A stretch of 36,811 nt of DNA from Nemertoderma westbladi (lineage: Eukaryota; Animalia; Xenacoelomorpha). The notes under the pieces are model-generated. The model searched no databases. It was given only the letters and a program-made list of their open reading frames with translations, and was not told where the DNA came from. Below are positions 1 to 30,831 of the stretch, piece after piece (position 1 is the first letter of the stretch; each line of letters opens with the position of its first letter). Both the position numbers and the translations under genes were made by a program. Location: NCBI GenBank assembly GCA_032718475.1, contig JAUCBJ010004385.1, positions 1 through 36,811 of the forward strand. Direction: 5' to 3'.

Positions 1-767
1 CGAATTGTTTGAATGGGATCCCGAATTGTTGGAAAGGGATCCCGAATTGTTGGAACGGGATCCCGAATTGTAGGAACGGGATACGAATTGTAGGAAAGGG
101 ATCCCGAATTGTAGGAACGGGATCCCGAAGTGTTGGAACGGGATCCCGAATTGTAGGAGCGGGATCCCGAATTGTTGGAACGGGATCCTGAATTGTTGGA
201 ACTGGATCCCGGAACGGGATCCTGAATTGTAGGAACGGGATCCCGAATTGTAGGAACGGGATCCAGAATTGTAGGAACGGGATCCCGAATTGTTGGGACG
301 GGATCCCGATTGTTGGAATGGGATCCCGAATTGTTTGAATGGGATCCCGAATTGTTGGAAAGGGATCCCGAATTGTTGGAAAGGGATCCCGAATTGTTTG
401 AATGGGATCCCGAATTGTTGGAAAGGGATCCCGAATTGTTTGAATGGGATCCCGAATTGTTGGAAAGGGATCCCGAATTGTTGGAACGGGATCCCGAATT
501 GTAGGAACGGGATACGAATTGTAGGAAAGGGATCCCGAATTGTAGGAACGGGATCCCGAAGTGTTGGAACTGGATCCCGAATTGTTGGAACGGGATTCCG
601 AATTGTTGGAACGGGATCCTGAATTGTAGGAACGGGATCCCGAATTGTTGGAAAGGGATCCCGAATTGTTGGAACGGGATCCCGAATTGTTTGAATGGGA
701 TCCCGAATTGTTGGAAAGGGATCCCTCCCGAATTGTTGGAACGGGATCCCGAATTGTAGGAACGGGA
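1..767. repeat. 21-bp tandem satellite, left block (runs off the window edge)
   Basis: Unit consensus GGATCCCGAATTGT(T/A)GGAACG, containing the 10-bp palindrome CGGGATCCCG. Variant units recur in blocks (e.g. GGGATACGAATTG at ~78 and ~509). Confidence 0.97.
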
Positions 768-1785
768 GGTACGGTGACACAGAACCATTTGAAGTGTTAT
801 GGGGCGTCCTCCAAGGAGACACACTTGCAGCATTCCTGTTCATTATTGTGGTTGACTATGTTCTACGCATGTCCTTAGATCATCATAATGATGATGGGGT
901 GATGATAACTCCACCTACTGGCTACAGAAGTCGAGGAAATCCTGCCAAGTACCTAACTAATCTAGACTTTGCTGATGACTTAGGAGTACTCTCAGAATCA
1001 CTAGAGGGAGCCCAACGGCTCCTCAGCTCATTAGAACATGCTGCTTCTAGTGTTGGTCTTTTTATTAACTCCAGAAAGACCAAAATTTTGACAGTTAACT
1101 TTGAAAGTCCTCAGCAAGTCTCTGATCGGATGAGCATAAGCTCAAAGGATGGTATGCTTGAGCATGTGGACGACTTATGTTACCTGGGATCATGGATCCG
1201 GAAGTCAGGTGAGGACCTTCGAATACGTAAGGGAAAGGCATGGGCAGCCTTGTATAGGCTTTCCAGGATTTGGAAGTCACCGAGAATTAATCGGAAACTT
1301 AAGGTCCGATTATTTAGAGCAGCAGTAGTTCCAGTACTCCTCTACGGGAGTCCATGCTGGGCTCTAACTGCTGAGGACACCAAATCTCTGGATGGCACAT
1401 TCACAAGAATGCTACGCCGGGTTCATTGTGTCAAGTACAATGCACACATCTCCAACCAGACACTATATAACATTGGAGGTGTCTCATTGGTTCCCCCAAG
1501 CTTGACACTAGAACAAAATCGCCTCCGCTTTGCAGGACATTGCTTTCGCCGTGAGGACCAGCCTGTGCATAATCTTGTACTTTGGCAGCCTCATGGAGTG
1601 AATAAGCATGGTGGACAGCCCATGACTTTCTTGAGACGCATCTTATAGGACACTGGCCTTAAAGATGCGGATGATCTAGCAAATGTCATGGGTGATAGGG
1701 AGTTGTGGCGGTGCAATTTTGTTGACAAGCCGGCACATCATTCTTAAAAATGCAGCTGCAATGCAGCATGCCGATCCTAGTAGTA
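768..1785 (+). mobile_element. 5'-truncated RTE-like non-LTR retrotransposon (C-terminal half of RT) inserted in the 21-bp satellite
   Basis: RT motifs GVLQGDTLA, LDFADDL, YLGSWI, VLLYGS.CW and RLRFAGHC.R. Premature TAG at 1646-1648 where the copy at ~29.5 kb has AAG. (TAG)n tail. GTAGGAACGGGA on both flanks (756-767, 1786-1797). Confidence 0.9.
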
Positions 1786-3255
1786 GTAGGAACGGGATAC
1801 GAATTGTAGGAAAGAGATCCCGAATTGTTGGAACGGGATCCCGAATTGTAGGAGCGGGATCCTGAATTGTAGGAACGGGATCCCGAATTGTTGGAACGAG
1901 ATCCCGAATTGTTTGAACGGGATCCCGAATTATTGGAACTGGATCCCGAATTGTAGGAGCGGGATTCCGAATTGTAGGAACGGGATCCCGAATTGTTGGA
2001 ACGGGATCCCGAATTGTAGGAGCGGGGTCCTGAATTGTAGGAACGGGATCCCGAATTGTTGGAACGAGATCCCGAATTGTTTGAACGGGATCCCGAATTA
2101 TTGGAACTGGATCCCGAATTGTAGGAGCGGGATTCCGAATTGTTGGAACGGGATCCCGAATTGTAGGAACGGGATCCTGAATTATAGGAACGGGATCCCG
2201 AATTGTTGGAACGGGATCCCGAATTGTAGGAGCGGGATCCCGATTGTTGGAATGGGATCCCAAATTGTAGGAAAGGGATCCCGAATTGTAGGAACGGGAT
2301 CCCGATTGTTGGAACTGGATCCCGAATTGTAGGAACGGGATCCCGAATTGTTGGAACTGGATCCCGAATTGTTGGAACTGGATCCCGAATTGTAGGATCT
2401 GGATCCCGAATTGAAGGAACGGGATCCCGAATTGTAGGAAAGGGATCCCGAATTGTAGGAACGGGTTCCCGAAGTGTTGGAACTGGATCACGAATTGTAG
2501 GAACGGGATCCCGAATTGTTGGAACGGGATCCCGAATTGTTGGAACGGGATCCCGATTGTTGGAACGGGATCCCGAATTATTGGAATGGGATCCCAAATT
2601 GTTGGAAAGGGATCCCGAATTGTTGGAACGGGATCCCGAATTGTAGGAACGGGATCCCGAATTGTAGGAACGGGATCCCGAATTGTAGGAACGGGGTCCC
2701 GAATTGTTGGAACGGGATCCCGAATTGTTGGAACTGGATCCCGAATTGTAGGAACGGGATTCCGATTTGTTGGAACGGGATCCCGAATTGTAGGAACGGG
2801 ATCCCCCGAATTGTAGGAACGGGATCCCGAATTGTTGGAACGGGATCCCGAATTGTTGGAACGGGATCCCGCATTGTTGGAACTGGATCCCGAATTGTAG
2901 GAACGGGATCCCGAATTGTTGGAACGGGATCCCGAATTGTTGGAACTGGATCCCGAATTGTAGGAACGGGATCCCGAATTGTAGGAACGGGATCCCGAAT
3001 TGTAGGAACGGGATCCCGAATTGTTGGAATGGGATCCCAAATTGTTGGAAAGGGATCCCGAATTGTTGGAACGGGATCCCGAATTGTAGGAACGGGATCC
3101 CGAATTGAAGGAACGGGATCCCGAATTGTTGGAACGGGATCCCGAATTGTTGGAACTGGATCCCGAATTGTAGGAACGGGATCCCGAATTGTAGGAACGG
3201 GATCCCGAATTGTAGGAACGGGATCCCGAATTGTTGGAACGGGAACCCGAAGTTC
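1786..3255. repeat. 21-bp tandem satellite, right block (~70 units)
   Basis: Same unit as 1-767; degenerates at about 3250 (GGGAACCCGAAGTTCCGA). Confidence 0.97.
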
Positions 3256-6822: not shown

Positions 6823-7263
6823 TGGAATAATTTTACATTATTCAAAATGGAATAATTTTACATTATTCAAAATGGAATAATTTTACATTATTCAAAATGG
6901 AATAATTTTACATTATTCAAAATGGAATAATTTTACATTATTCAAAATGGGAATAATTTTACATTATTCAAAATGGGAATAATTTTACATTATTCAAAAT
7001 GGGAATAATTTTACATTATTCAAAATGGAATAATTTTACATTATTCAAAATGGAATAATTTTACATTATTCAAAATTGAATAATTTTACATTATTCAAAA
7101 TGGAATAATTTTACATTATTCAAAATGGAATAATTTTACATTATTCAAAATGGAATAATTTTACATTATTCAAAATGGAATAATTTTACATTATTCAAAA
7201 TGGAATAATTTTACATTATTCAAAATGGAATAACTTTACATTATTCAAAATGGAATAATTTTA
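6823..7263. repeat. 25-bp AT-rich minisatellite, ~17.5 copies
   Basis: Unit GGAATAATTTTACATTATTCAAAAT, near-perfect copies; three consecutive units carry an extra G. Confidence 0.97.
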
Positions 7264-10200
7264 GTTTCAGGTTTGATCTTGGCCTCCTGCTACTATTTCA
7301 GATTAAGTTATAGTTGTTTCAGTTTTCTGTGAAAAGTGTGGTAATCCACATTACAATAGGGAGACTACAGCCAAGACTAATAAAATACACTTAGCTGAGT
7401 TTGTGTTTGTGCATGTCTGGTCGAAGGTCTGCTATTGGTTTGGCTTGTAGAAAATTATTGTACATTTTACTGAATTGATTACTAGTTGACCTAAAGGTGA
7501 AGGACAGAAAGAACAAACATAATAGATTAAATAAAACGGATACGTACGTAACCATCAGTACTTCTTGTCTCGCCCCATAAGCTATAACCCAGTATAGTAC
7601 ATAACATTGATTTCTGTTTAAAGATCCAAAATTTTGGCACAGCCATAATAGTTTATCATTGGAGTTAGTTAATTGTGGACATCATAGGGCCTTTTGCTAA
7701 AGGCGATAAATAAATCGTCAGACAGACAGGCAGAGGTTTATAATGTCTAGACATTGCTTACCTATATTTGGGTATCAAAATGATTGCAGAATATGAATAA
7801 TCATGTATTCTATAACAGATAACCTGCTAATGAAACAACAATGAATGATATCATCATAGGAACTCCAAACGCACTTTTATGACAATTTTAATTTCGGCCA
7901 GACAAGACGAATTTCTGCAATTAATTGATGATAGAGGCGGTAACGTACAACTATTTGAGAGAAATTAGAAGAAAGTTATAAGATTTTTCCACTCACAATA
8001 GAATTTAATGAATTTATAAAACTAACATAATCGTAAATAATCAAAGATATATCATACCTTGGATGTGCAGTGTATAACTTGTTTACTTTTGATTTTCTTG
8101 GTTGATTGGTTTACCAATGATTGAAAGTGGATCGTATGCGGGCTCTAAAATGTAAATCCTACCATTCCTTTGCATGTTTACTATTATTTAAATCTATAAT
8201 TAATCTATTACTTAGAACATCAGTGCTCCTTATGCCCCTATGAGAGACACCAATATATCTACTACAATACTCGGGGCGATCAGAATGAGAAAAAAATTAT
8301 GATTTCATATTAATATCACAATCCCTCTAAAGTCGTGGTTGTCTAACATCATATAGTTAAAAAATATTACGACCAGGACCAAATGGATGGTTGGATTCGT
8401 TTGCACGATCAATCGGATTAAGAAAGTTTCTATACTTTACTGAAATTTTAAATAGGAAATGTTGTGAAATCATGTAACGTTAATTATCTTGGGAGTGAAA
8501 GTGAAGGAGGGGAGAAAGAGATTTAATGTACAATGTTTGAGTTGAACTTTGGTAACATTTGAATCCAGTGTCCAACATTGTGAATGATGTATAAAAAGGA
8601 CAATTGAAGATAAATAGAGAGTGAACTCATCGATTTAGATTAAATCCCAAAACAACGCGATGGTCAGCTGAGAAATCGGTACAGCTGAAAGAAACCCTAT
8701 TGGATTACAATCTAATCCAATATCAGTTGCAGGTCTGTTGCACAACACATCGTGGGGACCAAGCACTGCCAGAATTAATGAAGAATTAATGATATTCATG
8801 TGATGGACCGAACCACCCTCCAATGAATATCATTAGGAACCACCATTCCCATCACACTGAACGCGGGTCCAACCAAATAGTTTAAGTTAGAATCTATTTT
8901 AAAGCTATCATCGATTAGGTCAACCAAGTTATGTCAGCCAGTGTGAATGAGAATGGTGCCTAACAATTCGTAAAAGTCGTAAACTTATAATAATGAACAT
9001 TTTGCAGTACAATGGTATAGCTAAATTATGTTTCAAATAAATACAATATAATTCGAAAACAAATACAGTTATTTTCATTGCCTACATTGCACTACATGCG
9101 AATGTGAATATATTCTTCTTATTCAATAATAATCAATAAATGACACATTTTGACGTCACAAATCTCATATTTACACGTATAAAACTTCTAGTAAAGGCAA
9201 ATTATTATCTGGTGGCGGAGTGAGGGAGGCTTTCACATAGTCACAAGAAAATAATAAACTACTCTAGCTACAGACATACTGCCACTGTAAACAACTTACC
9301 GCACAGCTATTCGATGGTTTGATAAAATGTACTTTATTATTGGTAGCTTAGCTACATAAATAAGGCTTAACAATCACAGCTAATAAAACAGTAATTTATT
9401 TAATTTAACAATTAAAAATTATTACAATACAATAAATAGATGCTTAGATTTGCGACTAGAGTATTTTTTAACTATAGCATAATTAATTATTGCTAACTCT
9501 TATAGTACGTAAGTTGCTTTACTTTTTTGCATTTTTTTTCTGTTAGCATATTAATGCCATGTACTCGCAATGTATATTGTGTTGTGCGAGTGATTATGGG
9601 GTTGAAGTATTACATCAACCACTCCCCATGTCCCTCGTGGTCCTTTATTTAATACAAAGGTGTAACACAAAAGTCCGTGAGAGAAACAATGTTGGAAAAA
9701 ACCTTATTTACCGGTACTATAGTAGATCGGAATGACAGATTAATTGTCAATTATTGCGAAATGGTAAATCTTAATCTGTTATTGATTGCGCCAACTGCGT
9801 AGGTAGGAATATAGCACAAACAACAGTACGAAGACATGACCTACGTAATGGTGAAACTATATATATTATGAATGATTGGGAATTGGTATATATTTTGTTG
9901 GTGCGAAGAGAATCTCTGATTGCACGATATTGCAGTCTACAATCAATTTGGTGATCATTTGCAATTTATAAAAATTGCCAAAAGAACCATTGTTCGATTC
10001 TGTGACGGTCTAAGTAGTAAATAATGATACAATATTAATGTCTAATCGCAATAAACCATTGTTACATATAATTATAAAACTAATAAGAGCTAACCTTACA
10101 GTCATTGTGTAAGTTACAGCACAGATGATGAAAAAAGGATATGTAAAATGTATGGAAGAATTCAATGTTCGTATGACTGCGTAGAAAAATTAACCACCAA

Positions 10201-10635
10201 ACTTTACATACTTTGAGTTTGGTAAAGAAAGGGGGGAGTGCATTTTATATAAAATCGGGACAAATAATAAACAATAATTATAGTACTAACAAACTAAGGG
10301 AGACAACCAGTAGATATCCAACATCTCCCACCCTGGGCCCAGTTACATTAAGCAGACTATACATTGGGTTTATAATAAGATGCTCGCTAACCAAGCAACC
10401 AGGTGGTTCCCGGATTATTATTATAATATATACAAAAAAAGTTGAGAGGAAATAAATAATGTAACGAAATTTATATGTACCGGAAAAGCGCCAATATCTC
10501 AAAACCAAACTAAAACCGGTAACATAACCGGAGTCATAGCAACTGATTGCGGACCAACCATGGGACACACCGACCGTAAAGACAATTACAGTCATCAGTA
10601 GAGGTATGGTAGGGGTTGTATTGCGGTAACACATT

Positions 10636-10807
10636 TCAGTAATTACCATGTTCGAATGTGTTAAATATATCCCTTTGTAGATCGATTTTAGCCGTTTCCA
10701 CCATGGCCTCTCTCTGTTTCCTTTGTTCTTCGCGATCCCGTTCCCGCTGTCCCTTCAATCGCTCCCCCTCCTGTTGTCTGTCCAACTCCTGTTGTTGTTT
10801 TTTAGCT
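10636..10807 (-). CDS. BRD4: Terminal coding exon of the BET gene, encoding the BRD4-type C-terminal motif (P-TEFb-interacting domain)
   Basis: Acceptor ctgtatattttag|A joins in phase 2 to the upstream exon ending ...GAA CG. Translation (R)AKKQQQELDRQQEGERLKGQRERDREEQRKQREAMVETAKIDLQRDIFNTFEHGNY* resembles the BRD4/fsh-L end (R.REAM...ID...Q.D....FE). TGA at 10636-10638. Not in the ORF track. Confidence 0.88.
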
Positions 10808-13800
10808 CTAAAATATACAGATAGACCACCGCTATAAGATGAATATTATTAAGATACCTTGATTGATTTTATAATATTCTATGATTAACAATTAACAACA
10901 AGCTGTTATGTAGCACATTTAGAGGATAACATATTATATAAACCAACTTCCATTGTGGCTAAATGTTTAAAAGCTGTGATTACAGCTTTAGGCGAGTTCC
11001 TTACAATACAACTGAACCTGAAACGTCATATCAGTGATCATCACGCCACCAACAATATTACAGAGAATAATCATAATGGTTAGGCCAACACCCCGAACGG
11101 AGTAAATATTAATAAACATTCAATTGTACAATAATATGATACACGTTTTGTAATTATAAAATAAGGAACATTATAAACAGTGGTAGAGGTGGTGATTACT
11201 GGCAATAATAAATTATAATAATACTAATAATTAATTATTTGTACTAGTTATACTAATAACGATCCAAAACCCGAACTTAAACCACTCCAATGATCCATCA
11301 CTTCCCCTGCAGAGGAAATATACAGATAAATTTAGAAGAAACCCTACGGAACCAGGAAATTTGGACATCAATGCGCATAAACCGTTCTAGAGCGACTCAG
11401 TAACTAACCGTTCTAGAGCGACTCAGTAAATAACCGTTCTAGAGCGACTCAGTAACTAACCGTTCTAGAGCGACTCAGTAACTAACCGTTCTAGAGCGAC
11501 TCAGTAATTAACCGTTCTAGAGCGACTCAGTAACTAACCGTTCTAGAGCGACTCAGTAATTAACCGTTCTAGAGCGACTCAGTAACTAACCGTTCTAGAG
11601 CGACTCAGTAACTAACCGTTCTAGAGCGACTCACTAACTAACCGTTCTAGAGCGACTCAGTAACTAACCGTTCTAGAGCGACTCACTAACTAACCGTTCT
11701 AGAGCGACTCAGTAAATAACCGTTCTAGAGCGACTCAGTAACTAACCGTTCTAGAGCGACTCACTAACTAACCGTTCTAGAGCGACTCAGTAACTAACCG
11801 GTCTAGAGCGACTCAGTAACTAACCGTTCTAGAGCGACTCAGTAAATAACCGTTCTAGAGCGACTCACTAACTAACCGTTCTAGAGCGACTCAGTAAATA
11901 ACCGTTCTAGAGCGACTCAGTAACTAACCGTTCTAGAGCGACTCAGTAAATAACCGTTCTAGAGCGACTCAGTAACTAACCGTTCTAGAGCGACTCAGTA
12001 ACTAACCGTTCTAGAGCGACTCAGTAATTAACCGTTCTAGAGCGACTCAGTAACTAACCGTTCTAGAGCGACTCAGTAATTAACCGTTCTAGAGCGACTC
12101 AGTAACTAACCGTTCTAGAGCAACTCAGTAACTAACCGTTCTAGAGCGACTCACTAACTAACCGTTCTAGAGCGACTCAGTAACTAACCGTTCTAGAGCG
12201 ACTCACTAACTAACCGTTCTAGAGCGACTCAGTAAATAACCGTTCTAGAGCGACTCAGTAACTAACCGTTCTAGAGCGACTCACTAACTAACCGTTCTAG
12301 AGCGACTCAGTAACTAACCGTTCTAGAGCGACTCAGTAACTAACCGGTCTAGAGCGACTCAGTAACTAACCGTTCTAGAGCGACTCACTAACTAACCGTT
12401 CTAGAGCGACTCAGTAACTAACCGGTCTAGAGCGACTCAGTAACTAACCGTTCTAGAGCGACTCAGTAAATAACCGTTCTAGAGCGACTCACTAACTAAC
12501 CGTTCTAGAGCGAATCAGTAAATAACCGCTCTAGAGCGACTCAGTAACTAACCGTTCTAGAGCGACTCAGTAAATAACCGTTCTAGAGCGACTCAGTAAC
12601 TAACCGTTCTAGAGCGACTCAGTAACTAACCGTTCTAGAGCGACTCAGTAATTAACCGTTCTAGAGCGACTCAGTAACTAACCGTTCTAGAGCGACTCAG
12701 TAATTAACCGTTCTAGAGCGACTCAGTAACTAACCGTTCTAGAGCGACTCAGTAACTAACCGTTCTAGAGCGACTCACTAACTAACCGTTCTAGAGCGAC
12801 TCAGTAACTAACCGTTCTAGAGCGACTCACTAACTAACCGTTCTAGAGCGACTCAGTAAATAACCGTTCTAGAGCGACTCAGTAACTAACCGTTCTAGAG
12901 CGACTCACTAACTAACCGTTCTAGAGCGACTCAGTAACTAACCGTTCTAGAGCGACTCAGTAACTAACCGGTCTAGAGCGACTCAGTAACTAACCGTTCT
13001 AGAGCGACTCACTAACTAACCGTTCTAGAGCGACTCAGTAAATAACCGTTCTAGAGCGACTCAGTAACTAACCGTTCTAGAGCGACTCAGTAACTAACCG
13101 TTCTAGAGCGACTCAGTAATTAACCGTTCTAGAGCGACTCAGTAACTAACCGTTCTAGAGCGACTCAGTAATTAACCGTTCTAGAGCGACTCAGTAACTA
13201 ACCGTTCTAGAGCGACTCAGTAACTAACCGTTCTAGAGCGACTCACTAACTAACCGTTCTAGAGCGACTCAGTAACTAACCGTTCTAGAGCGACTCACTA
13301 ACTAACCGTTCTAGAGCGACTCAGTAAATAACCGTTCTAGAGCGACTCAGTAACTAACCGTTCTAGAGCGACTCACTAACCGTTCTAGAGCGACTCAGTA
13401 ACTAACCGGTCTAGAGCGACTCAGTAACTAACCGTTCTAGAGCGACTCACTAACTAACCGTTCTAGAGCGACTCAGTAAATAACCGTTCTAGAGCGACTC
13501 AGTAACTAACCGTTCTAGAGCGACTCAGTAACTAACCGTTCTAGAGCGACTCACTAACTAACCGTTCTAGAGCGACTCAGTAACTAACCGTTCTAGAGCG
13601 ACTCACTAACTAACCGTTCTAGAGCGACTCAGTAAATAACCGTTCTAGAGCGACTCAGTAACTAACCGTTCTAGAGCGACTCAGTAATTAACCGTTCTAA
13701 AGCGACTCAGTAACTAACCGTTCTAGAGCGACTCACTAACTAACCGTTCTAGAGCGACTCAGTAACTAACCGTTCTAGAGCGACTCACTAACTAACCGTT

Positions 13801-14834
13801 CTAGAGCGACTCATTAAAACCGTTGTAGAGCGACTCAGTAACTAACCATTCTAGAGCGACTCAATAAATAACCGTTCTAGAGCGACTCAGTAATTAACCG
13901 TTCTAGAGCGACTCTGTAACTAACCGTTCTAGACCGACTCAGTAACTAACCATTCTAGAGCGACTCAGTAACTAACCGTTCTAGAGCGACTCAGCAACTA
14001 ACCATTCTAGAGCGACTCAATAAATAACCGTTCTAGAGCGACTCAGTAACTAACCGTTCTAGAGCGACTCAGTAACTAACCATTCTAGAGCGACTCAGTA
14101 ACTAACCATTCTAGAGCGACTCACTAACTAACCGTTCTAGACCGACTCAGTAACTAACCGTTCTAGAGCGAGTCAGTAACTAACCGTTCTAGAGCGACTC
14201 AGTAACTAACCGTTCTAGACCGACTCAGTAACTAACCGTTCTAGAGCGACTCAGTAACTAACCGTTCTAGAGCGACTCAGTAACTAACCGTTCTAGAGCG
14301 ACTCAGTAACTAACCATTCTAGAGCGACTCAATAAATAACCGTTCTAGAGCGACTCAGTAACTAACCATTCTAGAGCGACTCAATAAATAACCGTTCTAG
14401 AGCGACTCAGTAACTAACCATTCTAGAGCGACTCAATAAATAACCGTTCTAGAGCGATTCAGTAACTAACCGTTCTAGAGCGACTCAGTAACTAACCGCT
14501 CTAGAGCGACTCAGTAATTAACCGTTCAAGAGCGACTCTGTAACTAACCGTTCTAGACCGACTCAGTAACTAACCGTTCTAGAGCGACTCAGTAACTAAC
14601 CGTTCTAGAGCGACTCACTAACTAACCGTTCTAGAGCGACTCAGTAACTAACCGTTCTAGAGCGACTCAGTAATTAACCGTTCTAGAGCGACTCAGTAAC
14701 TAACCGTTCTAGAGCGACTCACTAACTAACCGTTCTAGAGCGACTCAGTAACTAACCGTTCTAGAGCGACTCAGTAATTAACCGTTCTAGAGCGACTCAC
14801 TAACTAACCGTTCTAGAGCGACTCAGTAACTAAC
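10808..14834 (-). other. GT-AG phase-2 intron of the BET gene (4027 bp), mostly tandem array
   Basis: Donor CG|GTTAGT at 14835/14834 and acceptor TTTTAG|A at 10808/10807. Joining them restores the reading frame into the conserved CTM. Confidence 0.82.
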
Positions 14835-14845
14835 CGTTCTAGAGC
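11379..14845. repeat. 26-bp tandem array, ~133 copies; the unit is the BET exon/intron junction
   Basis: Plus-strand unit ACCGTTCTAGAGCGACTCAGTAACTA; sense-strand unit GCTCTAGAACG|GTTAGTTACTGAGTC. The first copy overlaps codons A-L-E-R of the coding exon. Confidence 0.97.
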
Positions 14846-17800
14846 TTCCATCTCCTCAGCTTCCCGCCGCTTCTCCGCCTCGAGTTTCAACCTTTCTTTC
14901 TCGTTGGCCTCGTGTTGCTGCTTCCGGACAACTTCCTGGAGTTTCAGAGTTTTTTCTCTCTCCTCCTTCTCTTTGGCCAACATTTTAAACTCCCTGAAAC
15001 TCGTGGAGGCGTTCTCCACGTTGGCGGTAGTGGAGGAGGTGGCTTTACTCTTGGCGTGCTTGGACCACGCGCTGAGGTTGGCCTTGATGTCGTCCCGCTC
15101 CTCTCCGTCCTCCTCTTCGTGGACTCCCTCCCCGTTGGGGAGCATTCCGATCCCGTAGGTGACGGCCGCCCCGACGTGGTTGCTCTCCGCCGCGTCGGGG
15201 TGCGGTTTGGCGGGGTTCGCCGACGATTTAACCGCGGTGTCGCTGCTCGCTGCGGCGGCGACTGGCGTCGACGTTCCGTGCGTGTAAACTTTCCCAAACA
15301 CGGGGGCACTGGGCGTCAGTGGGGGCGGCCCGTCGGGCGCGGGTTGGGCCGGCTTCCCAGGGGGCGGCGCGGTCGGCGGCCGCTTTATCGGCTTACCAGT
15401 TTGCCGCGGCGCCGCGGCGGGGTTGGGGGAATGCGTCGCGGGTTTCTTCACGCCTCCCGGGTGAACACCACGACCCCCCACGCCCCCTGGATGGACCCCC
15501 CGACTCCCCACGCCCCCCTCCAGACCGCCCGCCTTCCCTCCCAACGCGTTGTGCTTCGCCGGGTCGTCGGAATTACTGGAATCGCTGCCGCTCGACGAAC
15601 TCGAGTCCGAACTATCGCTATCCGAACTGCTCGACGAGTTACTCAGTTTACTTTCCGACTTCCGTTTAGTTTTCCGCGGCTTTTTACTCCCCATTTGCTC
15701 GAGTTTTTTCTCAACTTCTTTCTTCTGCATCGCCATTGCGACAGCTGCGACTTTATTAGCGACGACGCCGGGGTTCTTCTTGGTGTAGGGCTTCCGCGGT
15801 TTCTTCCGCAGACACGAGTGGACGTACTTCTCGAGTTCCCGGAGCGTCGAGGGTTTCAGCGTCTCGAAGTCGATCTCGATCTCGTCCGGGTTGGAATCCC
15901 GCAACGAGGGCTCCCGATTCTGGATTATGTGGACGACGCGGCCCAACTTGTCACCGGGCAGCTTGTTGATATCGAGACTGAGTTGCCGCTTCTCGTCGTA
16001 CGTCATCGGCTTCGCGAGGTCCTCCTCCTCGCTGTCAAACGCGCCGGACTTCTTCCGGCGGTAGGCGCGTTTAATTTGCTTCTTGGGCGGCGACGCGCCG
16101 ACCGCCACGCCGGGGGATTTCTTCTTGTGGACCGCGGCGGCCCCCCCGGAAGCCGATGGAGTCACGGCCGGTTTAGGTGTGGCCGTAGGGCCGTTGTTGG
16201 TCGGGGGTTTCGGCCTCGGCGGGGCGATCGGCCTTTCCTCCTTCGCGACGACAACCTGCTGTTTAACAACCGGGACGTCCGCTACCGGCGCTCCAACAAC
16301 CAAAGGTTTCTTCACCTTCTTCCGTCGCTTTTTCTTCCCTTTGGATTTATTATAAGCGGCGCTGATCTCCGCTATCTGGTTCATTAGGCTGTGCAACTGA
16401 CTCTGCAGTTTGGCTAGTTTCTGTTGCTTCTCGGTGTCTGAATCGCCGCTCTCCTCGCTACTGGAGTCCTCCTCATAGGAGCTCCCGGAGCTGACCGCCG
16501 TAGTCGCGGACTCTGTCGGGCCGACCGGCTGCGGCTCCGTCGCCGGCCGTTCCAACATCTTCGCGTATCGGATCTCGAATACCGCGGATAGCTGCTTGGC
16601 CATGGTGACGATCTCGTACTCCGGGGGGTTGTACTTGTAACAATTGTCGAACATCACCCGAACGTCGGCCGCGAATTCCGCCGGGGATTTATATTTACTT
16701 GAGTCGAGTTTCGATTTTATAGTTTTTAGATCCATCGGGTACTTTATTTTCTCGTGGTAATCCGTGAGGTTTAAGGCCTCGGCGTCCACGGGGTTATAGA
16801 AAGGCCACGCGTAGCGCGAGTGTTTCTTACTCTGGAGTTCCCGGCAGATATTGAGACAATCCTTCAACTGATCCTCCAGAGTTTTAGGTTTAACTTGTTT
16901 AACGATGGCGTGCGGCGTCGTCGATGTGGTGGAGAACTCCTTGAGGGGTTTCTTTATGAGACGAGGCGATCGGGCTGTGACGGGGGAGCTGGTCGGATCG
17001 ACGGATATCGATAGAGGCGTTACAGGGATCCCGGAGGGAGTCAACGAGAAGCTCTCGGGAACCTCCGGGTTGGGGGTCGTCGTGTCCGCTTTGCGTTTGA
17101 TTCCTTTCTTCGGTTTGGATGGAAGTCGAGGTCGCGGCATCATCGGGAAGCCGGTCGGCATGTTGGTGGAGGTGACGTTGTACTGCGGGAGCGACGGCTT
17201 GGGGACTTTGGGCGGTTCCGAGACTGCGATTGTGGGTGTGGCGAAGGCGTGGCTCGCTACCGGTGCAGATACGGACTGCGTCACTGCGGGAGTCGGCGTC
17301 GCCGAGGGTTTCTTACTCACCGGAGCCGGTACAACCACCGGAGGCTTCGCTTTCGCTACTGGTTTCTTTTTCTTCGGACTGGCCCCCGGCAAAGGAAACT
17401 TGCTTCTTCTAGAAACTGAACTGCGTTTTCTAATGTTTTTTAACGGGATCGGGACTTCAAACTCATCCGATGGCATCGCCGATAACTTAGATAAGAACGC
17501 TTTCTCCAAGGACTGCGCCATTAGAACAACGTCTTCCCCAGGTTTGTTATACAAATAACAGTTCGAGAACATGAGGTTGAAGTCAGCTATACATTCCTTG
17601 GCGGAAGTGTAATAATTAGTTTCAAGACGTTCCTTTATTGTGCCGAGATCAATCGGGGTTTTTATAAGATCGAAGTAATCGTGAAGACCAAGACCTTCCG
17701 TGTCTACAGGAACATGGAACGGCCAGGCAAATTGTTCCTTCCAAACTGACGGCATAACAGTTTTCTGTAAGTATTGCAGCTGATTTGTACTCATTTTGGG

Positions 17801-17947
17801 TTTGGGAGTGGGTACTAAAGAGTCATTATCGTCGTACTGTGACCGACTTGTAGGGGTATCTGTCGTTGATGTGGGTTCTGACCCCGAATACCCATGTGTG
17901 GCATCACCCCCAAGGTTGTTCCCGTTATGAGTATCGAAACTGCTCAT
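14835..17947 (-). CDS. BRD4: BET-family protein (BRD2/3/4/T, fs(1)h-like), main coding exon: BD1, BD2, ET domain, Ser/Asp-rich tract, Pro-rich region, start of C-terminal domain
   Basis: BD1 (TNQLQYL...FAWPFH.PVD...[16 protein letters not shown]), motif [15 protein letters not shown]2 ([15 protein letters not shown]...NCYKYNPP), and ET domain ([62 protein letters not shown]). The last 6 aa of the track ORF (LVTESL) are intron read-through. The symbol denotes family likeness, not proven orthology. Confidence 0.95.
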
Positions 17948-18124
17948 CGTTATAGTCCAGAAACAACCAAATTAACATTAAATTAATTCACGAATATAAA
18001 AAGCAAATTAGCAGCGGATCAGTACGGTAGGCAGATAGGCCTATGTAATGGCATCAATGTACAGCTGTAGTGTATATATATAACTATATGTGTTGGCAGG
18101 TAGACCTAAGGCTAAAGGTGTAGA

Positions 18125-18583
18125 TGTAGAAGTTAATTTAATGACGCATAAAAAGTATGAGAATGAGACATTATATGAATGAGTAAGCCTACTGAACTGA
18201 GTATCCAAAGCGGTATACATACAGGTATATGGATAATCAGAGAAGTCTACCATATGTATTACAGATACAGAACCAGAGAAATTTGTAAACCACCCTCTCC
18301 CGCCTCATATCATAATGACACTCATCTTCATACAGTCATATCTAATATAAAATGTGATAAATATGTAATAAGATAATAATAACATATATCTGACCGAATA
18401 ACATAACTCTGACTGACACCGTACTACTGTACTATCATACCTACTAGTCTACATCAGGTAGCATGTCCTACCGGTACATAATAATATATATAACTGACTG
18501 ACAGACTCCAAATACTGTAGTTCCCGGTAATCCTCATTCACTCCCGTCACCACATACAGTACTAGAACGTAAGAGTCTCTACA
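18125..18583 (-). repeat. Probable 3' LTR of the Gypsy element (~460 bp)
   Basis: On the minus strand it follows the polypurine tract GGGGGGGA (18593-18586). Begins TGTAGA and ends TCTACA (18125, or 18119 as an alternative), with ATTAAA shortly before the end. No second LTR is available to confirm limits. Confidence 0.6.
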
Positions 18584-18746: not shown

Positions 18747-19937
18747 TTAAGCATTATTCCATGTGACCTTTAATAAACGATAAGGACCATGGAATGGCCG
18801 ACCGAATTTATGTAATTTTCCTTTCACTGTATCTGGACGGTATAAAAATACCCTGTCTCCAACGTTATATTTAATTGGTTGAGTTCTCTTTGTCATATTG
18901 CTTCTTATATTGGTCTTGTTTCTTTTCAAAGTTTTCCCGTGCAAGTTCCCATGCAAATGTAAGGTTCGCGGCTAGTTCAGTTTTATAATCATCCAAATCT
19001 ATTTGGTAAATAGTTTTTGGGGAATTCAGAGTTGTTTCTGTTGGTAATCTAGCATCTCTCCCGTAGAGTAAGTAAAAAGGTGACTCCTTTGAAGAACTAT
19101 ACTCCGAAGTTCGATAAGCAAATAATAAGCAAGATAAATCATCATCCCAATCCGTTTCATGTCAATCCAAAGTTTTCGAAAGCATGGATAACAATGTTCG
19201 ATTAAATCTCTCTACTAAACCGTCTGTCTGGGGATGATAAGCGCTGGTGTTGATCTTTTGCATTCCACATAATTTACACACATTTGTAAATACTTAAAAG
19301 TTTGTAAAACTTTGTAAATACTTAAAATAAAAAGTTTGCTCCCCGATCTGAAAGAACCTTCCATGGAACACTACAGCACTATGACGAGATATATAATCAA
19401 CAAAACAACAGCAATTGTTGTTGCACTTTCATCTTGTAATGCATAGGCCTCAACCCATTTCGTCAAGTAATCACTGATTATTGCACAATATCTATTTCCA
19501 CTCTGGGTTAATGGGAGCGAAAGTATATCAATTGCCACTCGATCGAATGGTCCCTCTACTTGTAAGGGCATTAATGGCGGTTTATTTGCACATCCCGGAT
19601 TCCGAGTAGCACATTTCAAGCATGAATGAGTCCATTTGAAAATATCCTTTCGCATTTTTGGCCACCAATATTGTAATTTTAGTATAGACCATAGATCTGA
19701 TAAATGTCCCCCAAACCGTCCTCCATGTACTCCCGACCATATTTTATGCCTCCAACGTTCTGGTACTGCCAAACGAGGTTGGCCTGATTTTCCAACATCA
19801 TCAAATTTATAAAGCAATCCATCTATTACTGCTGTCGAGTTTCTTTCAGTTGACAATTGGCGAAATAAATCTTCATAATCAGGTAATGCATCCATTTGAT
19901 GATAGTCAATTAATGCTTTATATAAAGGGTCTACCAA
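18747..19937 (-). pseudogene. Gypsy integrase remnant
   Basis: H...GH...WWPKMRKDI...C..C zinc finger, rve core start, and GPY/F module, split across frameshifted ORFs. Confidence 0.88.
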
Positions 19938-20187
19938 TTGTAGACTTTGTATAACATATGTCTCTCCCTTTAAGTTGTTTCAATATCCGACTTTATCTCT
20001 GCCTCTTCTTTTGATTCAGATAAACTCTCAGGCCTGTCGTTAAAAGTGGTACAAGTTCCGTGCATTCGAGATAAAACATCTGCATTCGCATTAGCTTTAC
20101 CTGGTCAATGGAAAACATTCTCGGGCGAAATATAATCAGTAAGATCTATCACCCAACGTGCCAATTGGCCTTTTAATTCATGGCGAC

Positions 20188-23100
20188 TAGACCGATCCGA
20201 AAATATTCAAATTGAGATACAGAGAAGACTTGTCAGCTTAATTGGTTCTATTTCCCATAATATTAAGTTGTGCCAAGTATGGAATCATAATGTTGAACAT
20301 GCAAGCTACTGGAGCTAAATGAATTTTTGACTTATCGCAAAATTTATCGCCCGATGAGCTTGAGCGCGGTTAAGGGACAGTTTTCATGGAATGCATTAGA
20401 TTTGAAAAATACTGATAACATCACGTTTGTCATATGTTTATCTTTAATTTGAATGGCTGCTTTAGGGTACTGTACTGTACAGTTGTAGTAATGTAATACC
20501 TGTAGGCCTATACAAATGACACTACATGACGCCTATACTGCGCTACTGCACTTCTGATCCACTCTTGCATTTTGGATGTTCTGCATTCCACTGTCCTACC
20601 TACCGGTACCGGTAGGCCTACCCTAAAACACAGGCCTTTGTACTATCTTCTACTGATGTAGCCTACTACATACAGTAGGTTTAGTGAGTGATATTCAGTT
20701 TCTACAGTACTGTACCGGTAGCCTATTATCCAATTATCGAATTTTGAGTTATATATTATAAGGTATAGATTATAATACAATGGCAAGTTGCTACAGTACA
20801 CGGAAACAACGATCTGAATATCTCCTGATTGGAAAGAGCCTTGATAGTAATTTTCGAAATTGCCATTTACCATTTAACATTTCTGTTCTTCAAAAAATGG
20901 TCTATTTTTGTCGAGAGGAAGGTATTCCCAAGAATAAGTCAGCTGGATTAGTCGCATCAGAAATCCGGAAAATATGGGTGGAGGCAGGTTCTATGTACTA
21001 TCATAATGAATTGAATGTCCTTGACAAGGTAAGAAAGCTGTATGAGAGGTGGCTTTCAATTGATAAACAACCACCTGAATGTAGAAAAACTGGCAAAACA
21101 TTGGAAAGGATAAATAAATTGTCTGAAGAGATGAACAAGCTATTTGATATTTCTGTTAAGAAACACGATGGTATGCTGCTGCCTGAAGAACGTGAATGGA
21201 TTCAAAAACTTAGACAGGGAGAAGATCTACCATTTCTGAAATCAAGGGATTTGAAATACGAAGAGGAAGCTATGAAACAAAAAGACAAACTGGACCGTAA
21301 ACTTGACAGGGAACGGAAAGAAATGCTTAGAAAGCAAAATGACTTGGACAAAATTGTTGAACTTGATATGTCGAGGTCTGCTTCAGAGGATGATAGTACT
21401 GACTCTGATGTTGACTATCTTCCACCATCTTCAGCAACATCAAGCAAGAGGTGTGCCTCAGTGCAACTGATGATGCCACGGAACATAATGAATGACCAGA
21501 CAGTAGCTCAGACTGCTGATCGCATTGGAATTTCATCTGGAGCTGCAACAGCCTACACTGCAGCAATTATCAAGGCCAGTGGAGGTAATCTAGATCAGGT
21601 CACACTCAGCAAAAGTAGCACACGAAGTGGCCGGTCAGCATCTCGAGCAGCAAGGGCCAAATATATCAAGGACTCCTTTGATCCTGGAGAACACAAAATT
21701 GCAGTCCACTGGGATGGGAAAAAAATGGCTCATCTGAAATGCTCCCTTACAGATGTTGATCGATGTGTTGTAGCCATAACTGGCAGTGGTATCCCAAATG
21801 CTGATGGCAGCACAAAGTACACAAAACTGTTGGGAATTGGAGCTGCAAGTACTAGTTCCTCTCGGGACATTACTTCAATAGTACAACGTTACATTTCTGA
21901 ATGGAATATCAAAGCCTTGGTAGCATTTCTTGTCTTTGACACGACTAATTCTAATTCTGGTTGGCTGGATGGCACCTGTGTACAGCTGGAGAAGTGGTTA
22001 GATCGGCGAGTGATATGGCTTGCCTGCCGCCACCACATTGGGGAGGTTATAGTCAGTGCAGTACACAGCCTGGTATTTGGTGCAACCAGTGGCCCTAGTC
22101 CCCGATTCCATGGTAGACTACGAGAACAATGGATAGCCCTAGATCTAACAAAGGGTCAATGTCTACCTGATACTGATAAATATGTCCAGGAAAGACATGA
22201 CCTTAAGGAACTGTTGGGCACTATTAACTGCCGTGCCGATTATCGAGAACTTCTTGTACTTGCCATTTTTCTACTTGGTGGGGAATACCCACATACATTC
22301 TATCAGCCTGGTGCTGATTCCAACGCCAGGTGGATGGCCAGCCTGATGTATGCTTTTAAATTATATATATTCAGAGGTCAACTTCACCAGAAGACACAAG
22401 GTAGTATCCATCTTGAGCAGCGACTTGAGCGCTTTGTTCAGTTTGTTGCCAGCACATATGTTGGATGGTGGATACGGTGTCCAGTGCTAGTGGATGCTCC
22501 CAGAAATGATTTGGAGTTATATTTCAGGGCACTGAATTTATCTGATGTTGAACTGGGACAAGTGGTAATAAAGAAACTAACTGGCCATCTGTGGTACCTG
22601 AGGCAGGAAGTGGTACCTGTTAGTCTGGCAAATGATCGGGTCTCCAATGAACAAAAGGAGAGGATTGCTATTGCGATGCTCGAAGCTAAACCAAATGATG
22701 ATCGACGGGATCTTTCTGTGGCAGCAGTGGTCAAGAAAGGAACCAAGATTAGTCGTGAGGTTCCACCAAACAATGTAAACCTGAACAATGGCACAACTTT
22801 GGAGGATCTCATTGGCCCTGATTCATGGCTAATGCCCCAGTTGTTGGGGTTGTCATTTGATTGGTTACACCAAAAACCAGCAACTTGGGTACTATATGAT
22901 GATTACAATCAATTTTGTTGTATTATCAATGACAAGGATCCCGTGAATGACCTGTCAGAAAGACTTATCCGTACCCAGGCAATTTACAATGGACTCCTTA
23001 CTAAGGATGAGAAGGAACATCAAGCTGTACTACAAGTCGTTGAAGACAGTCGCAAGAAAGTTCCAGATTTTCAAAAGCGTACTCTCAAGGAAAGACTCTG

Positions 23101-23613
23101 ATGGACCTAGTATAGAAACATATACTGAAATTAATACAGTACTAACTTTGTTGAGTTGATTAGATCATAGGTACTATTCTAATAATTGTTCTGATATCTG
23201 TTGCATTGTATTTTCTATGTTTTATATACCAGTCCTGCCAAGAATTAAGTAGTGCTTTCAGAGTTATATACTGGGCGATATGCGATATATGAAATTGCGT
23301 TATTATGATATATTAGTAATAGTTTAAAAAGTTACAAAAAGCATATATTCCAGCCATTCAAATGAAAGCTTATGGCATTATGATCACATTAGTAACATCA
23401 CATTTTTAAAAAAATGGAACCATAAAAAATTTATCGACTTCGCGATAAGCTATACCGGCGCTTGATCCAGTAAACTTTATTAACCCCCAGTAGCCCACAT
23501 GATAAAGTTATCACGAAACAGCTTATCATTTGGTGGTCAGTGACCAAATTGGAACAAATTTCATCAACAAGTCTTCATCATTTTGAAAAAAGTTAAAATT
23601 TCAGTGCAGTCTA
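20188..23613 (+). mobile_element. Full-length 3426-bp hAT-superfamily DNA transposon (possibly hATm-like)
   Basis: Perfect 8-bp TSD ATGGCGAC (20180-20187, 23614-23621). Imperfect TIRs: TAGACCGATCCGAAAAT versus TAGACTGCACTGAAATT (reverse complement of the right end). Removing it restores the Gypsy frame GLLLGRHELKGQLARW. Confidence 0.9.
20780..23101 (+). CDS. DDE transposase, 773 aa, uninterrupted
   Basis: Candidate catalytic residues in VHWDGK, VFDTT.SNSG and NDLSER. CxxH motif (ACRHH) after the second Asp and Trp motif ARWM. Lies between TIRs with an 8-bp TSD. Confidence 0.85.
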   Translation: MASCYSTRKQRSEYLLIGKSLDSNFRNCHLPFNISVLQKMVYFCREEGIPKNKSAGLVASEIRKIWVEAGSMYYHNELNVLDKVRKLYERWLSIDKQPPECRKTGKTLERINKLSEEMNKLFDISVKKHDGMLLPEEREWIQKLRQGEDLPFLKSRDLKYEEEAMKQKDKLDRKLDRERKEMLRKQNDLDKIVELDMSRSASEDDSTDSDVDYLPPSSATSSKRCASVQLMMPRNIMNDQTVAQTADRIGISSGAATAYTAAIIKASGGNLDQVTLSKSSTRSGRSASRAARAKYIKDSFDPGEHKIAVHWDGKKMAHLKCSLTDVDRCVVAITGSGIPNADGSTKYTKLLGIGAASTSSSRDITSIVQRYISEWNIKALVAFLVFDTTNSNSGWLDGTCVQLEKWLDRRVIWLACRHHIGEVIVSAVHSLVFGATSGPSPRFHGRLREQWIALDLTKGQCLPDTDKYVQERHDLKELLGTINCRADYRELLVLAIFLLGGEYPHTFYQPGADSNARWMASLMYAFKLYIFRGQLHQKTQGSIHLEQRLERFVQFVASTYVGWWIRCPVLVDAPRNDLELYFRALNLSDVELGQVVIKKLTGHLWYLRQEVVPVSLANDRVSNEQKERIAIAMLEAKPNDDRRDLSVAAVVKKGTKISREVPPNNVNLNNGTTLEDLIGPDSWLMPQLLGLSFDWLHQKPATWVLYDDYNQFCCIINDKDPVNDLSERLIRTQAIYNGLLTKDEKEHQAVLQVVEDSRKKVPDFQKRTLKERL

Positions 23614-23621
23614 ATGGCGAC

Positions 23622-24490
23622 CCAAAAGTAATCCTTTTATTGCTGCGTGATCTGTGTAAACCAATGTTGTTAAGGCTCTTCTTGTATAAATATGATTGAT
23701 TACAAGCCCATTTAAGTCCATATACCTCCAACTGAGTTGAAGTATATCGTTGTTGAGAGTTCGTCAGCTGTCTTGAAGCATATGCTATTGGTTGTAATTG
23801 ACCGTCATCATCAGCTATCTGGGATAAAACAGCCCCAAATCCGGTTTCACAAGCGTTAGTTTCTAAAATAAATGGTCTTGAATGATCTGGGTAACGCAAT
23901 ACTGGTGTAACCATTCTTTAAATTCACAAAAACTCAATCGTTGGTCTATCCCAAAGCAATAAGCCGTATTTTTCTTTAATAATGAGGTCAAAGGTCGGAC
24001 AATCTTTCCGTATCCTTCTATAAATTTTCGATAATAATTCGATAATCCCAGAAACGTCGAAGTTCCTTTAAATTCTTTGGTTTTGGAAAGTTTATGATTT
24101 TGTCTACAGTCTCTGGATTAGGAAGTAGTCGTTTCGTGTAACGATGTGTCCTAAAAACTTAATTTGAGATCTACCAAACTTGCACTTTCGAGTTCTCAGT
24201 TTTAAATTTGCCTCCCGTAGCTGATTTAATACTGCTGCCACATCTTCCAAGTGGCTATCGAAATCCGGTGAACAAACAAGTACATCATCTATATAGACAA
24301 AGCATGGTTTTCTTCCATTTACTACCACATCTTTAAGTATTTTCTCCATTGTTCTTTGAAACGTTGCTGGCATGCGTCCAAACGCTAAAACAATGAATTC
24401 ATAGAATCCCGCTGAACATGCAAATGCCGTTTTTGGAATAGCTTCCTCCGTTAGTGGAAGCTGCCAATATCCAGTAACAATATCCAGTAT
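23622..24490 (-). pseudogene. Gypsy reverse transcriptase / RNase H remnant
   Basis: YIDD catalytic motif, KTAF, PATFQRTM, KCKF, and RNase H N-terminal motifs; frameshifted. Confidence 0.9.
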
Positions 24491-29702: not shown

Positions 29703-30169
29703 AAAGTTCAGTCAATTATTTAATACTCACCACTTGACCACAGAACCAAGGCTGCAAGGCCGCTATTGACAATGTAGTGGCGCATATCTGCATATTTCTG
29801 TCCCGTTGCATTTGCTTACAATTAATTATATTTGTATACAAGCAGACAAGTGTAGTACTAGTATACACGTTTTGCAGTCCGACGAATCTGTACAAAAAAG
29901 TACAATATAGTACAAAGGAGTACAATAAAAGTGCAAAAATAGTACAAAAGAGTGCATAAATAGTACAAACGAGTGAGAAACGCATACAAAACGTGTATAC
30001 CAGTGTAGTATACACTACAGCACTACATGCACTAGCACTACACTTGTGTTGTATACAAATATAATTAATTGTAAGCAAATGCAATGGCGCCGAAATATGC
30101 GCGCTACAGTATCAATAGCGGCCTTGGTTCTGTGGTCAAGGTCAAGTATGAAATGATTGATAGAACTTT
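29703..30169. mobile_element. Fold-back/MITE element with ~120-135-bp inverted arms and a nested small inverted-repeat element
   Basis: 29703-29839 is the reverse complement of ~30049-30169. The inner element GTATACACGTTTTG...CAAAACGTGTATAC (~29861-30000) holds A-rich GTACAAAA repeats. Confidence 0.78.
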
Positions 30170-30679: not shown

Positions 30680-30831
30680 TTATATCCGTTTTGCAATGTT
30701 TCTCACTCGTTTGTACTATTTTGTACTATTTTTGCACTCTTTTGTATTATTTTTGCACTTTATTGTACTCTTTTGTACTATATTGTACTATTTTGTATTT
30801 TTTTTGTACTTTTTTGTACAGATTCGTCAGA
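30680..30831 (-). repeat. Second, inverted copy of the A-rich GTACAAAA element
   Basis: TTTCTCACTCGTTTGTACTATTT...TTGTACAGATTCGTC is the reverse complement of ~29880-29995. Confidence 0.8.

Follow-up and report, generated by a model that had tools for sequence, protein, structure and literature searches.

A 26-nt minisatellite of 133 copies across the end of a coding exon in a BET gene: a probable by-product of slippage or unequal exchange that is tolerated

Here, we describe a minisatellite in a contig of Nemertoderma westbladi whose first unit lies across an exon/intron boundary of a BET gene. It is likely (with a probability of about 70%) that this array is a tolerated product of slippage or unequal exchange and not a dedicated splicing element, and the by-product option that had been raised in the initial annotation of this DNA is retained as the best reading. 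The kind of array is already known, and the unusual feature of the present one is its copy number. What is new is the scale, i.e. 133 near-identical donors over 3.5 kb compared with 5-26 in the human genes studied, as well as the location in an essential-type chromatin regulator in which every wrong donor choice leads to a stop codon. The array represents a natural extreme test of how the spliceosome picks the first among many identical 5' splice sites, and shows tolerance of such arrays at sizes well above those examined at the bench, although by itself it opens no new question. Coordinates of all features within the window (the whole 36,811-nt stretch of DNA that was analysed) are given in Table 1.

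Table 1. Features of the BET gene and its intronic array (positions are those of the window)
Feature	Position	Strand	Description	Basis
Large coding exon	14835..17947	minus	~3.1 kb, opens at the first ATG of its frame and ends on the CG of a split Arg codon	ORF, Pfam, homologues
Copy 1 donor	14829..14837	minus	ACG/GTTAGT (-3 to +6), full-length frame	sequence, X4 join, homologue motif
Whole intron	10808..14834	minus	4027 nt, of which the array makes up 3455 nt (86%)	sequence
26-nt minisatellite	11380..14845	minus (sense)		Tandem Repeats Finder and unit parse, variant types, boundary check
Partial 134th unit	11380..11393	minus	exon-derived 11 nt plus GTT, then unique intron	parse; identical boundary in X2 contig
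Unique 3' part of intron	10808..11379	minus	AT-rich, GC 0.31, ends ...TCTATCTGTATATTTTAG	sequence
Terminal coding exon	10636..10807	minus	stop TGA at 10638-10636; encodes the BRD4 C-terminal domain (...REAMVETAKIDLQRDIFNTFEHGNY, stop)	Pfam, alignment of 16 homologues

Judged from its predicted protein, the host gene is a BET (BRD4-like) gene. The large exon lies in an open reading frame of 1052 aa (14813..17971, minus strand), in which the ATG at 17947 is probably the start codon, and it matched the Pfam families Bromodomain (PF00439, 7.2e-41, two stretches) and BET (PF17035, 7.7e-28). The terminal exon matched BRD4_CDT (PF17105) at 28.3 bits, where the cut-off is 27. Thus, two bromodomains, an ET domain and the BRD4_CDT motif bear out the BET identity that had been assigned at first. 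A protein search returned 2915 homologues (E<=0.001), the best of them with about 47% identity among the matches listed, and no protein near-identical to the BET product; the 56-aa product of the terminal exon, searched among proteins of 30-98 aa, had no match. Only one intron was seen in the coding region, and it separates the exon for the C-terminal domain, which we take to be of the P-TEFb-binding type, from the rest. The array sits where inclusion of this domain is decided, a position that leaves room for a role and that a neutral reading has to accommodate.

Tandem Repeats Finder reported one array over the range given in Table 1, with a period of 26, 133.5 copies, 94% matches, 0% indels and a score of 6253. 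When parsed on the sense strand, the array consists of 133 full 26-nt units, then a 14-nt partial unit and then unique intron, in agreement with the earlier estimate of about 133 copies. The units are arranged head to tail and fall within the size range of minisatellites; each combines 11 nt of the exon end with 15 nt of the intron start. Copy 1 begins at 14845, with the last exon base at 14835 and the donor GT at 14834-14833. Upstream of copy 1 only 4 of 15 positions matched the unit, so homology stops within the exon, and beyond the partial unit on the distal side 1 of 12 matched, so the array homology stops there as well. These boundaries, together with the sequence, confirmed the unit composition originally proposed, and all earlier figures on the array proved right or nearly right. 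The 11 nt taken from the exon are ancestral coding sequence and encode the conserved ALER.

Outside the array, no unit-like ungapped 26-mer with <=6 mismatches was found, and a resemblance of the unit to the stop-codon region (GGTAATTACTGA) noticed by eye was dropped accordingly. The exact 26-mer had 0 matches in metagenome contigs, and Rfam models at gathering score had 0 matches in 9500-18500. A coding tandem repeat was also rejected, since 11380-14812 contains no ORF of >=70 aa on either strand and the exon frame closes after 8 codons, at RLVTESL followed by a stop.

The spliced form was found in a 526-nt contig of an independent run (X4, whose kind had been guessed as DNA), which covers 14898..14835 and then passes directly to 10807..10778 with 30/30 letters. 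This join of the copy 1 donor at 14835 to the acceptor at 10807 was the only spliced-form join seen, in one X4 contig; contigs drop rare variants, and they show the presence of joins and not their absence. At the protein level, the junction reads EALER/AKKQQ and falls inside a motif conserved in homologues. Among 16 homologues, which were chosen from 120 listed for carrying PF17105, (E/D)ALE was present at the junction place in 9 and ALERxRK in 4, and the REAM...FEE tail encoded by the terminal exon was common to 16/16. The X4 join and this motif identify copy 1 as the donor of the full-length protein, and the X4 join and the reading frame point to it as the donor of the productive mRNA.

Copy 1 is also the only donor from which the reading frame continues into the BRD4_CDT exon. 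Use of any later donor leads to an in-frame stop (...RLVTESL), the same peptide that the exon frame reads through the array, and either intron retention or a later donor would yield a protein without the C-terminal domain. The earlier view that copy 1 is the authentic donor and that only the most upstream one gives full-length protein is upheld by the X4 join, the conserved junction motif and the stops behind later donors. The later pseudo-donors are probably silent or minor, by analogy with the human repeats studied. In X4, the depth of a two-unit array contig was 18.4 compared with 18-36 for the exon, which is consistent with cDNA containing little intron signal. No contig of X6 and X7, the other organisms of the same study, aligned at 80% likeness.

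The donor GT is retained in 133/133 units, followed by the hexamer variants GTTAGT (100 units), GTTATT (19), GTTAAT (13) and GTTTTA (1), much as the initial annotation had described; the common variant with an additional GTGAGT, 8 nt beyond the donor, is likewise present, in 25 units (24 of 26 nt and one of 22 nt). That as many as 100 units share the copy 1 hexamer and 25 carry the extra GTGAGT fits less easily with neutrality. Within the unit, variation is highest at the +5 G (32/131 units), followed by position 20 (29/131). Although the GT is invariant, 13 other positions are invariant too, and because it is the +5 G that varies most, no sign of selection was found on the copied donors. The GTGAGT variant looks at least as good as the copy 1 hexamer; relative donor strength was judged by eye together with the precedent of F7 +5G>A (PMC6627357, as far as its available text goes).

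Purines make up 73% of the last 60 nt of the exon compared with 50% of the unit. In the predicted fold of the exon end plus 16 units, the donors were mainly paired, with a mean unpaired probability of 0.30 for copy 1 and 0.05-0.43 for the others, and the predicted fold of ten units had a z of -2.8 against mononucleotide shuffles. RNA folding did not set copy 1 apart from the other donors and is not discriminating.

It is likely that the array started with a single duplication across the exon-intron junction and that later growth proceeded by multi-unit blocks. In the order of variant types, one 15-unit block and one 10-unit block are each present twice, and one-off variants amount to 0/11 in units 1-11, 8/31 in units 12-42 and 4/91 in units 43-133. 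The splicing machinery would choose the donor that lies furthest upstream, in line with experiments on the repeat in human F7 intron 7, and the purine-rich exon end just upstream of copy 1 would favour this choice. Products of the pseudo-donors would run into a stop ten codons in, without the C-terminal domain. Minisatellite arrays >400 bp account for 16.7% of the window; with such abundance, it is not improbable that one of them would start on a junction, and the present case may be one of many.

On the other hand, the array might be functional, with decoy donors, U1 loading or intron retention setting, in a copy-number-dependent manner, the balance between the transcript with the C-terminal domain and the RLVTESL-stop form. 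In other animals, long and short isoforms are switched via alternative 3' ends. If the ladder of donors acted as a copy-number dial on the sole coding intron, so that U1 trapping or slowed removal set the ratio of the full-length to the RLVTESL-stop form, it would be a repeat-length-encoded version of this switch; we regard the dial as a long shot and a functional array in general as unlikely. Such a role would agree with the position of the sole coding intron before the C-terminal domain exon, with the loss of that domain upon retention or use of a later donor and with the full hexamer kept in 100/133 units, and a CBS repeat has been linked to reduced enzyme activity, according to a title cited in PMC1557585. 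However, the copied donors appear unconstrained, the +5 G being their most variable site, unrelated minisatellites abound in the region, and the copy 1 join was the only join seen. Deletion of F7 repeats left splicing unchanged, as stated in the available text of PMC1557585. In particular, the suggestion that U1 loading suppresses premature polyadenylation was not supported, as neither AATAAA nor ATTAAA occurs in the 4027-nt intron (nor in 9800-10635) and there is thus no such signal to suppress.

Another explanation concerns the X4 join, which might come from DNA, i.e. from an intron-less allele or a processed gene copy, with the intron and array being polymorphic or recently gained. X4 was indeed guessed to be DNA, its array contig has about single-copy depth, and the spliced contig also joins 17111 to 14898, non-canonically and in the manner of truncated retrocopies. 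Nevertheless, we consider this explanation distinctly improbable. The contig is unbroken across 14835/10807, with no competing exon-to-array path of equal depth, whereas a gene and a retrocopy in one DNA sample would break it at that point; moreover, there is a gap in the X4 coverage at 15176-15300. The contig sets of the three different organisms in the study behind X4 are small, which we infer to be typical of transcriptomes, and in X2, an independent DNA sample, the array is present at full depth.

The X2 data also bear on whether assembly produced the array or lengthened it far beyond its real size. Long arrays of perfect period are difficult to assemble; even so, an artefact is very improbable. 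In X2, a two-unit contig was 14.7 times as deep as the exon (188.3 compared with 12.8), and the 56-mer that matches this contig occurs 13 times in the array of the window, which suggests a similar copy number in X2 by depth. An X2 contig carries the identical distal array boundary, and the ordered variant pattern is unlike that of a collapsed or inflated assembly. Stepwise intron removal (recursive splicing) through the array, also suggested at first, is hardly credible: every unit does provide a donor and a weak YAG (CTCTAG), but AGGT occurs 0 times in the array, so there is no AG/GT ratchet site, and splicing to CTCTAG would regenerate no donor and leave 4 extra nt each time.

The reading of the array as a tolerated repeat can be compared with known systems. 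The initial annotation knew of no described equivalent, but the kind is documented in the available text of two sources, for boundary-spanning minisatellites in human F7, IFI6 (6-16), CBS, LMNB2 and PDGFA (PMC1557585) and for the amphioxus 'mirages' in Adh3 and the globins BflGb6 and BflGb9 (Ebner et al., 2010, PMC3087553); the comparisons below refer to the same text. In the 37-bp VNTR of F7 intron 7 (Borensztajn et al., 2006, PMC1557585), as in the BET array, the boundary of exon and intron falls inside the first unit, identical pseudo-donors come after the authentic donor and the productive mRNA comes from the most upstream one. Of the 5-9 identical donors in F7, the one furthest upstream alone is used, and the pseudo-sites offer no competition even with a consensus value of 91 (PMC1557585). 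The two arrays differ in make-up, with 4 exon nt in each of the 5-9 units (37 bp) of F7 and 11 exon nt in each of the 133 units (26 bp) of the BET array; splicing of the F7 repeat was studied in 50 minigene constructs (PMC1557585), whereas splicing of the BET array is known from one contig join; and F7 is a vertebrate gene, whereas the BET array is found in an invertebrate-like genome.

Other cases share further features. The 6-16 gene (IFI6; Turri et al., 1995, via PMC1557585) also repeats its donor many times at an exon/intron border (25 donors besides the authentic one), but its two nearest pseudo-sites are used constitutively as well and add extra residues, in contrast to the stop that such use would give in the BET gene. 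The repeats in LMNB2, CBS intron 13 and PDGFA intron 4 resemble the BET array (86% of its intron) in filling most of the intron and in repeating the junction (PMC1557585). They comprise 10-20 units of 31-100 bp, so that the BET copy number is ~7-fold or more higher, and in LMNB2 and PDGFA the authentic donor alone is used (PMC1557585). Apart from the cases named here, our literature searches brought up neither a genome-wide survey of such arrays nor a case of >26 units. The amphioxus mirages are likewise invertebrate tandem repeats across exon-intron boundaries, but their units are longer than those of the BET array, at 150-160 bp, and few in number (3-6 in the globins); their splicing is reported to be undisturbed and they are unstable in length (PMC3087553). 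With about 47% identity as the best match among the proteins searched, the BET protein is not that of a sampled lancelet. Two points run counter to a neutral reading: two pseudo-sites are also used in human 6-16 and CBS (PMC1557585), and 133 copies far exceed any bench-tested case.

The array in the intron of the BET (BRD4-like) gene was re-examined with Tandem Repeats Finder, a parse of its units and donor counts, and the observation made in the initial annotation proved right in every detail. The repeat comprises 133.5 copies with a period of 26 and 94% matches, and is free of indels; on the minus strand, 133 full units, each consisting of 11 exon and 15 intron nucleotides, are followed by a 14-nt partial unit and then by unique sequence. 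Eight recurrent unit types (n = 55, 23, 13, 11, 7, 5, 5 and 2) and 12 one-off types were distinguished, and two units are short, one of 24 and one of 22 nt. The array begins precisely at 14845; the preceding 15 exon bases match the unit end at 4 of 15 places, and the 12 bases beyond the partial unit match at 1 of 12. It occupies 3455 nt (86%) of the 4027-nt intron, the other 572 nt being unique AT-rich DNA. An ORF search found no frame open throughout the array, and an Rfam search of 9500-18500 gave 0 matches.

Coordinates of features in the window (forward-strand numbering)
Feature	Position	Strand	Remarks
BET open frame	14813..17971	minus	first ATG 17947
Large exon	14835..17947	minus	single 3.1-kb exon, GC 0.49-0.63; flanks GC 0.28-0.40
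Intron	10808..14834	minus	
26-bp array	11380-14845	minus (sense)	
Terminal coding exon	10636..10807	minus	TGA stop 10638-10636
AGCTCTA	14846-14840	minus	exon end where array starts
TAGAGCT	10810-10804	minus	across acceptor
25-bp minisatellite	6823-7263		17.5 copies, 98% identity; downstream of BET gene
21-bp-unit array	1-767		~36 copies
LINE-type reverse-transcriptase fragment	695-1648		between the 21-bp-unit arrays
21-bp-unit array (same unit)	1786-3251		~70 copies
Second copy of LINE-type element	~28434-29665		
Retrotransposon pol pieces	18747-19979, 23564-24535	minus	order RT, RNase H, integrase zinc-binding domain
779-aa open frame	20762-23101	plus	no Pfam match
Inverted pair of 10-11-bp tandem arrays	29890-29975 with 30704-30819		GTACAAAAAA with TTTGTACTAT
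Inverted pair of 10-11-bp tandem arrays	33892-33983 with 35520-35617		AAAAAGCACA with TTTTTTTGTGC

Read from its first ATG, the large-exon product contains two bromodomains and an ET domain (Pfam) and has 2915 homologues at E <= 0.001, the best with ~47% identity. The exon ends after CG of a split codon with GTTAGT directly next, and the next open stretch, preceded by ...TGTATATTTTAG, matches Pfam BRD4_CDT with 28.3 bits (cut-off 27). The two exons were joined in silico into a 1094-aa product, whose last 230 residues were aligned with 16 homologues chosen from 120 listed for carrying PF17105. All 16 have the REAM...ID.N...FEE tail in common; at the place of the exon junction (EALER|AKKQQ in the window), (E/D)ALE was found in nine and ALERxRK in four. 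The gene model is supported by homology as well as by a contig join from another sample. The 11 exon bases within every unit are therefore old coding sequence; the array arose from the junction, and not the junction from the array.

All 133 units carry GT at the donor position. The hexamers are GTTAGT (100 units), GTTATT (19), GTTAAT (13) and GTTTTA (1), and 25 units have an extra GTGAGT 8 nt further on. The exon for the C-terminal domain is reached in frame from copy 1 only: splicing from unit 2, 3 or 4 adds 26, 52 or 78 nt, and each reads RLVTESL and a stop, the same truncated end that intron retention would yield.

Contigs of four sequencing runs from other samples (X2, X4, X6 and X7, the last two from other organisms of the X4 study) were matched to 14780-15300. 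In the independent sample X2, exon depth was 12.8 and that of a two-unit array contig 188.3, a ratio of 14.7; this contig is one letter off its reference place, and the most frequent 56-mer of this kind has 13 occurrences in the array of the window. Therefore, the long array is genuine, and its 26-mer does not form a genome-wide satellite. A second X2 contig (2412 nt) ends in array sequence after 30 letters identical to 11350-11379, which is the same distal boundary. In X4, from a third sample and study, a 526-nt contig runs from 14898 to 14835 and continues with 30 letters identical to 10807..10778, and thereby joins copy 1 to the acceptor; such contigs show the presence of joins, not the disuse of other donors. 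None of the runs listed as containing the exon is catalogued as RNA, and the software's guess for X4 was DNA, in which case the join would come from an allele lacking the intron or from a processed copy. However, the X4 array contig had a depth of 18.4 against 18-36 for the exon, ~10x below expectation for a DNA sample with this array, and we infer that X4 is cDNA. Even if X4 is DNA, the join still records a splice from copy 1. X6 and X7 had no contig matching 14780-15300.

The same X4 contig ends in 22 letters identical to 17132..17111, so that 17111 is joined to 14898 (minus strand) and 2212 nt of the large exon are skipped. None of the three possible placements of this join gives GT-AG ends, and AAGAAAGG is common to both sides. 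Template switching by reverse transcriptase may account for it, as may a deletion allele or a truncated retrocopy.

The initial annotation, made without a search, was aware of no described equivalent, but precedents exist. In the passages of PMC1557585 drawn on here, only the most upstream donor is used in F7 intron 7 (5-9 units, 37 bp), and only the authentic one in LMNB2 (10-15 units, 100 bp) and PDGFA intron 4 (16-18 units, 81 bp), while two pseudo-sites are also used in 6-16 (IFI6; authentic donor plus 25 pseudo-sites) and in CBS intron 13 (15-20 units; 31 bp per the title of a reference therein). Amphioxus "mirages" are the same phenomenon, with splicing reportedly undisturbed and length unstable (Ebner et al. 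2010, PMC3087553). A literature search of main texts found no case >26 units and no genome-wide survey. The BET array is a very large new case of this already known kind of repeat.

It is probable (about 0.7) that the array is a tolerated minisatellite, its pseudo-donors remaining bystanders since splicing selects the first donor. Such a choice would be expected on two grounds, the F7 results and the purine-rich exon sequence adjoining copy 1 (its last 60 nt are 73% purine). According to the same passages of PMC1557585, F7 pseudo-sites become functional once upstream sites are mutated (Borensztajn et al.), selection always falls on the functional site lying furthest upstream, even when the competing pseudo-sites reach a consensus value of 91, and repeat deletion leaves the splicing pattern unchanged.

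A copy-number-dependent role in inclusion of the C-terminal domain is conceivable, though improbable. If donor positions were kept for U1 binding, they should vary less than the remainder of the unit; among 131 units of 26 nt, key positions were not less variable than the rest. The most variable position is the +5 G (32/131 units), next position 20 (29/131); GT is invariant, yet so are 13 other positions, and the nine donor positions have 5 distinct variant types versus 11 for the other 17. Since in human F7 the donor of the first repeat is inactivated by +5 G>A (PMC6627357), about a quarter of the array copies are probably weakened. Copy 1 was not singled out in predicted RNA structure. As for suppression of premature polyadenylation by U1, also suggested initially, AATAAA and ATTAAA are absent from the intron, and therefore no canonical signal is there to suppress. 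Stepwise removal by ratchet splicing is out, AGGT being absent from the array.

The order of variants contains repeated blocks: one of 15 units begins at unit 75 and again at unit 119, and one of 10 units at unit 71 and again at unit 95. One-off variants are concentrated in units 12-42 (8/31), compared with 0/11 in units 1-11 and 4/91 in units 43-133. Such a pattern is typical of slippage and unequal exchange, the distal two thirds having undergone recent duplications of several units at a time. Unrelated minisatellites are abundant, arrays >400 bp making up 16.7% of the window. If the window is typical, a given junction would lie inside an end unit in roughly ~0.5% of cases (8 array ends per 36.8 kb, 26-nt unit); with many thousands of junctions, many such cases per genome would therefore be expected, if tolerated.

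Several other features were observed in the window. All BET coding sequence before the array intron lies in one exon; in other animals, BET genes contain many introns. By eye, AGCTCTA is the reverse complement of TAGAGCT; later units have C for the first A, so that only 6/7 bases pair. The LINE-type element lies as if inserted into a single 21-bp-unit array of at least 3 kb. The pol pieces are ~3.5 kb apart with the 779-aa frame between them, which looks like a nested insertion. Both inverted array pairs look like subterminal repeats from foldback elements or DNA-transposon-like elements.
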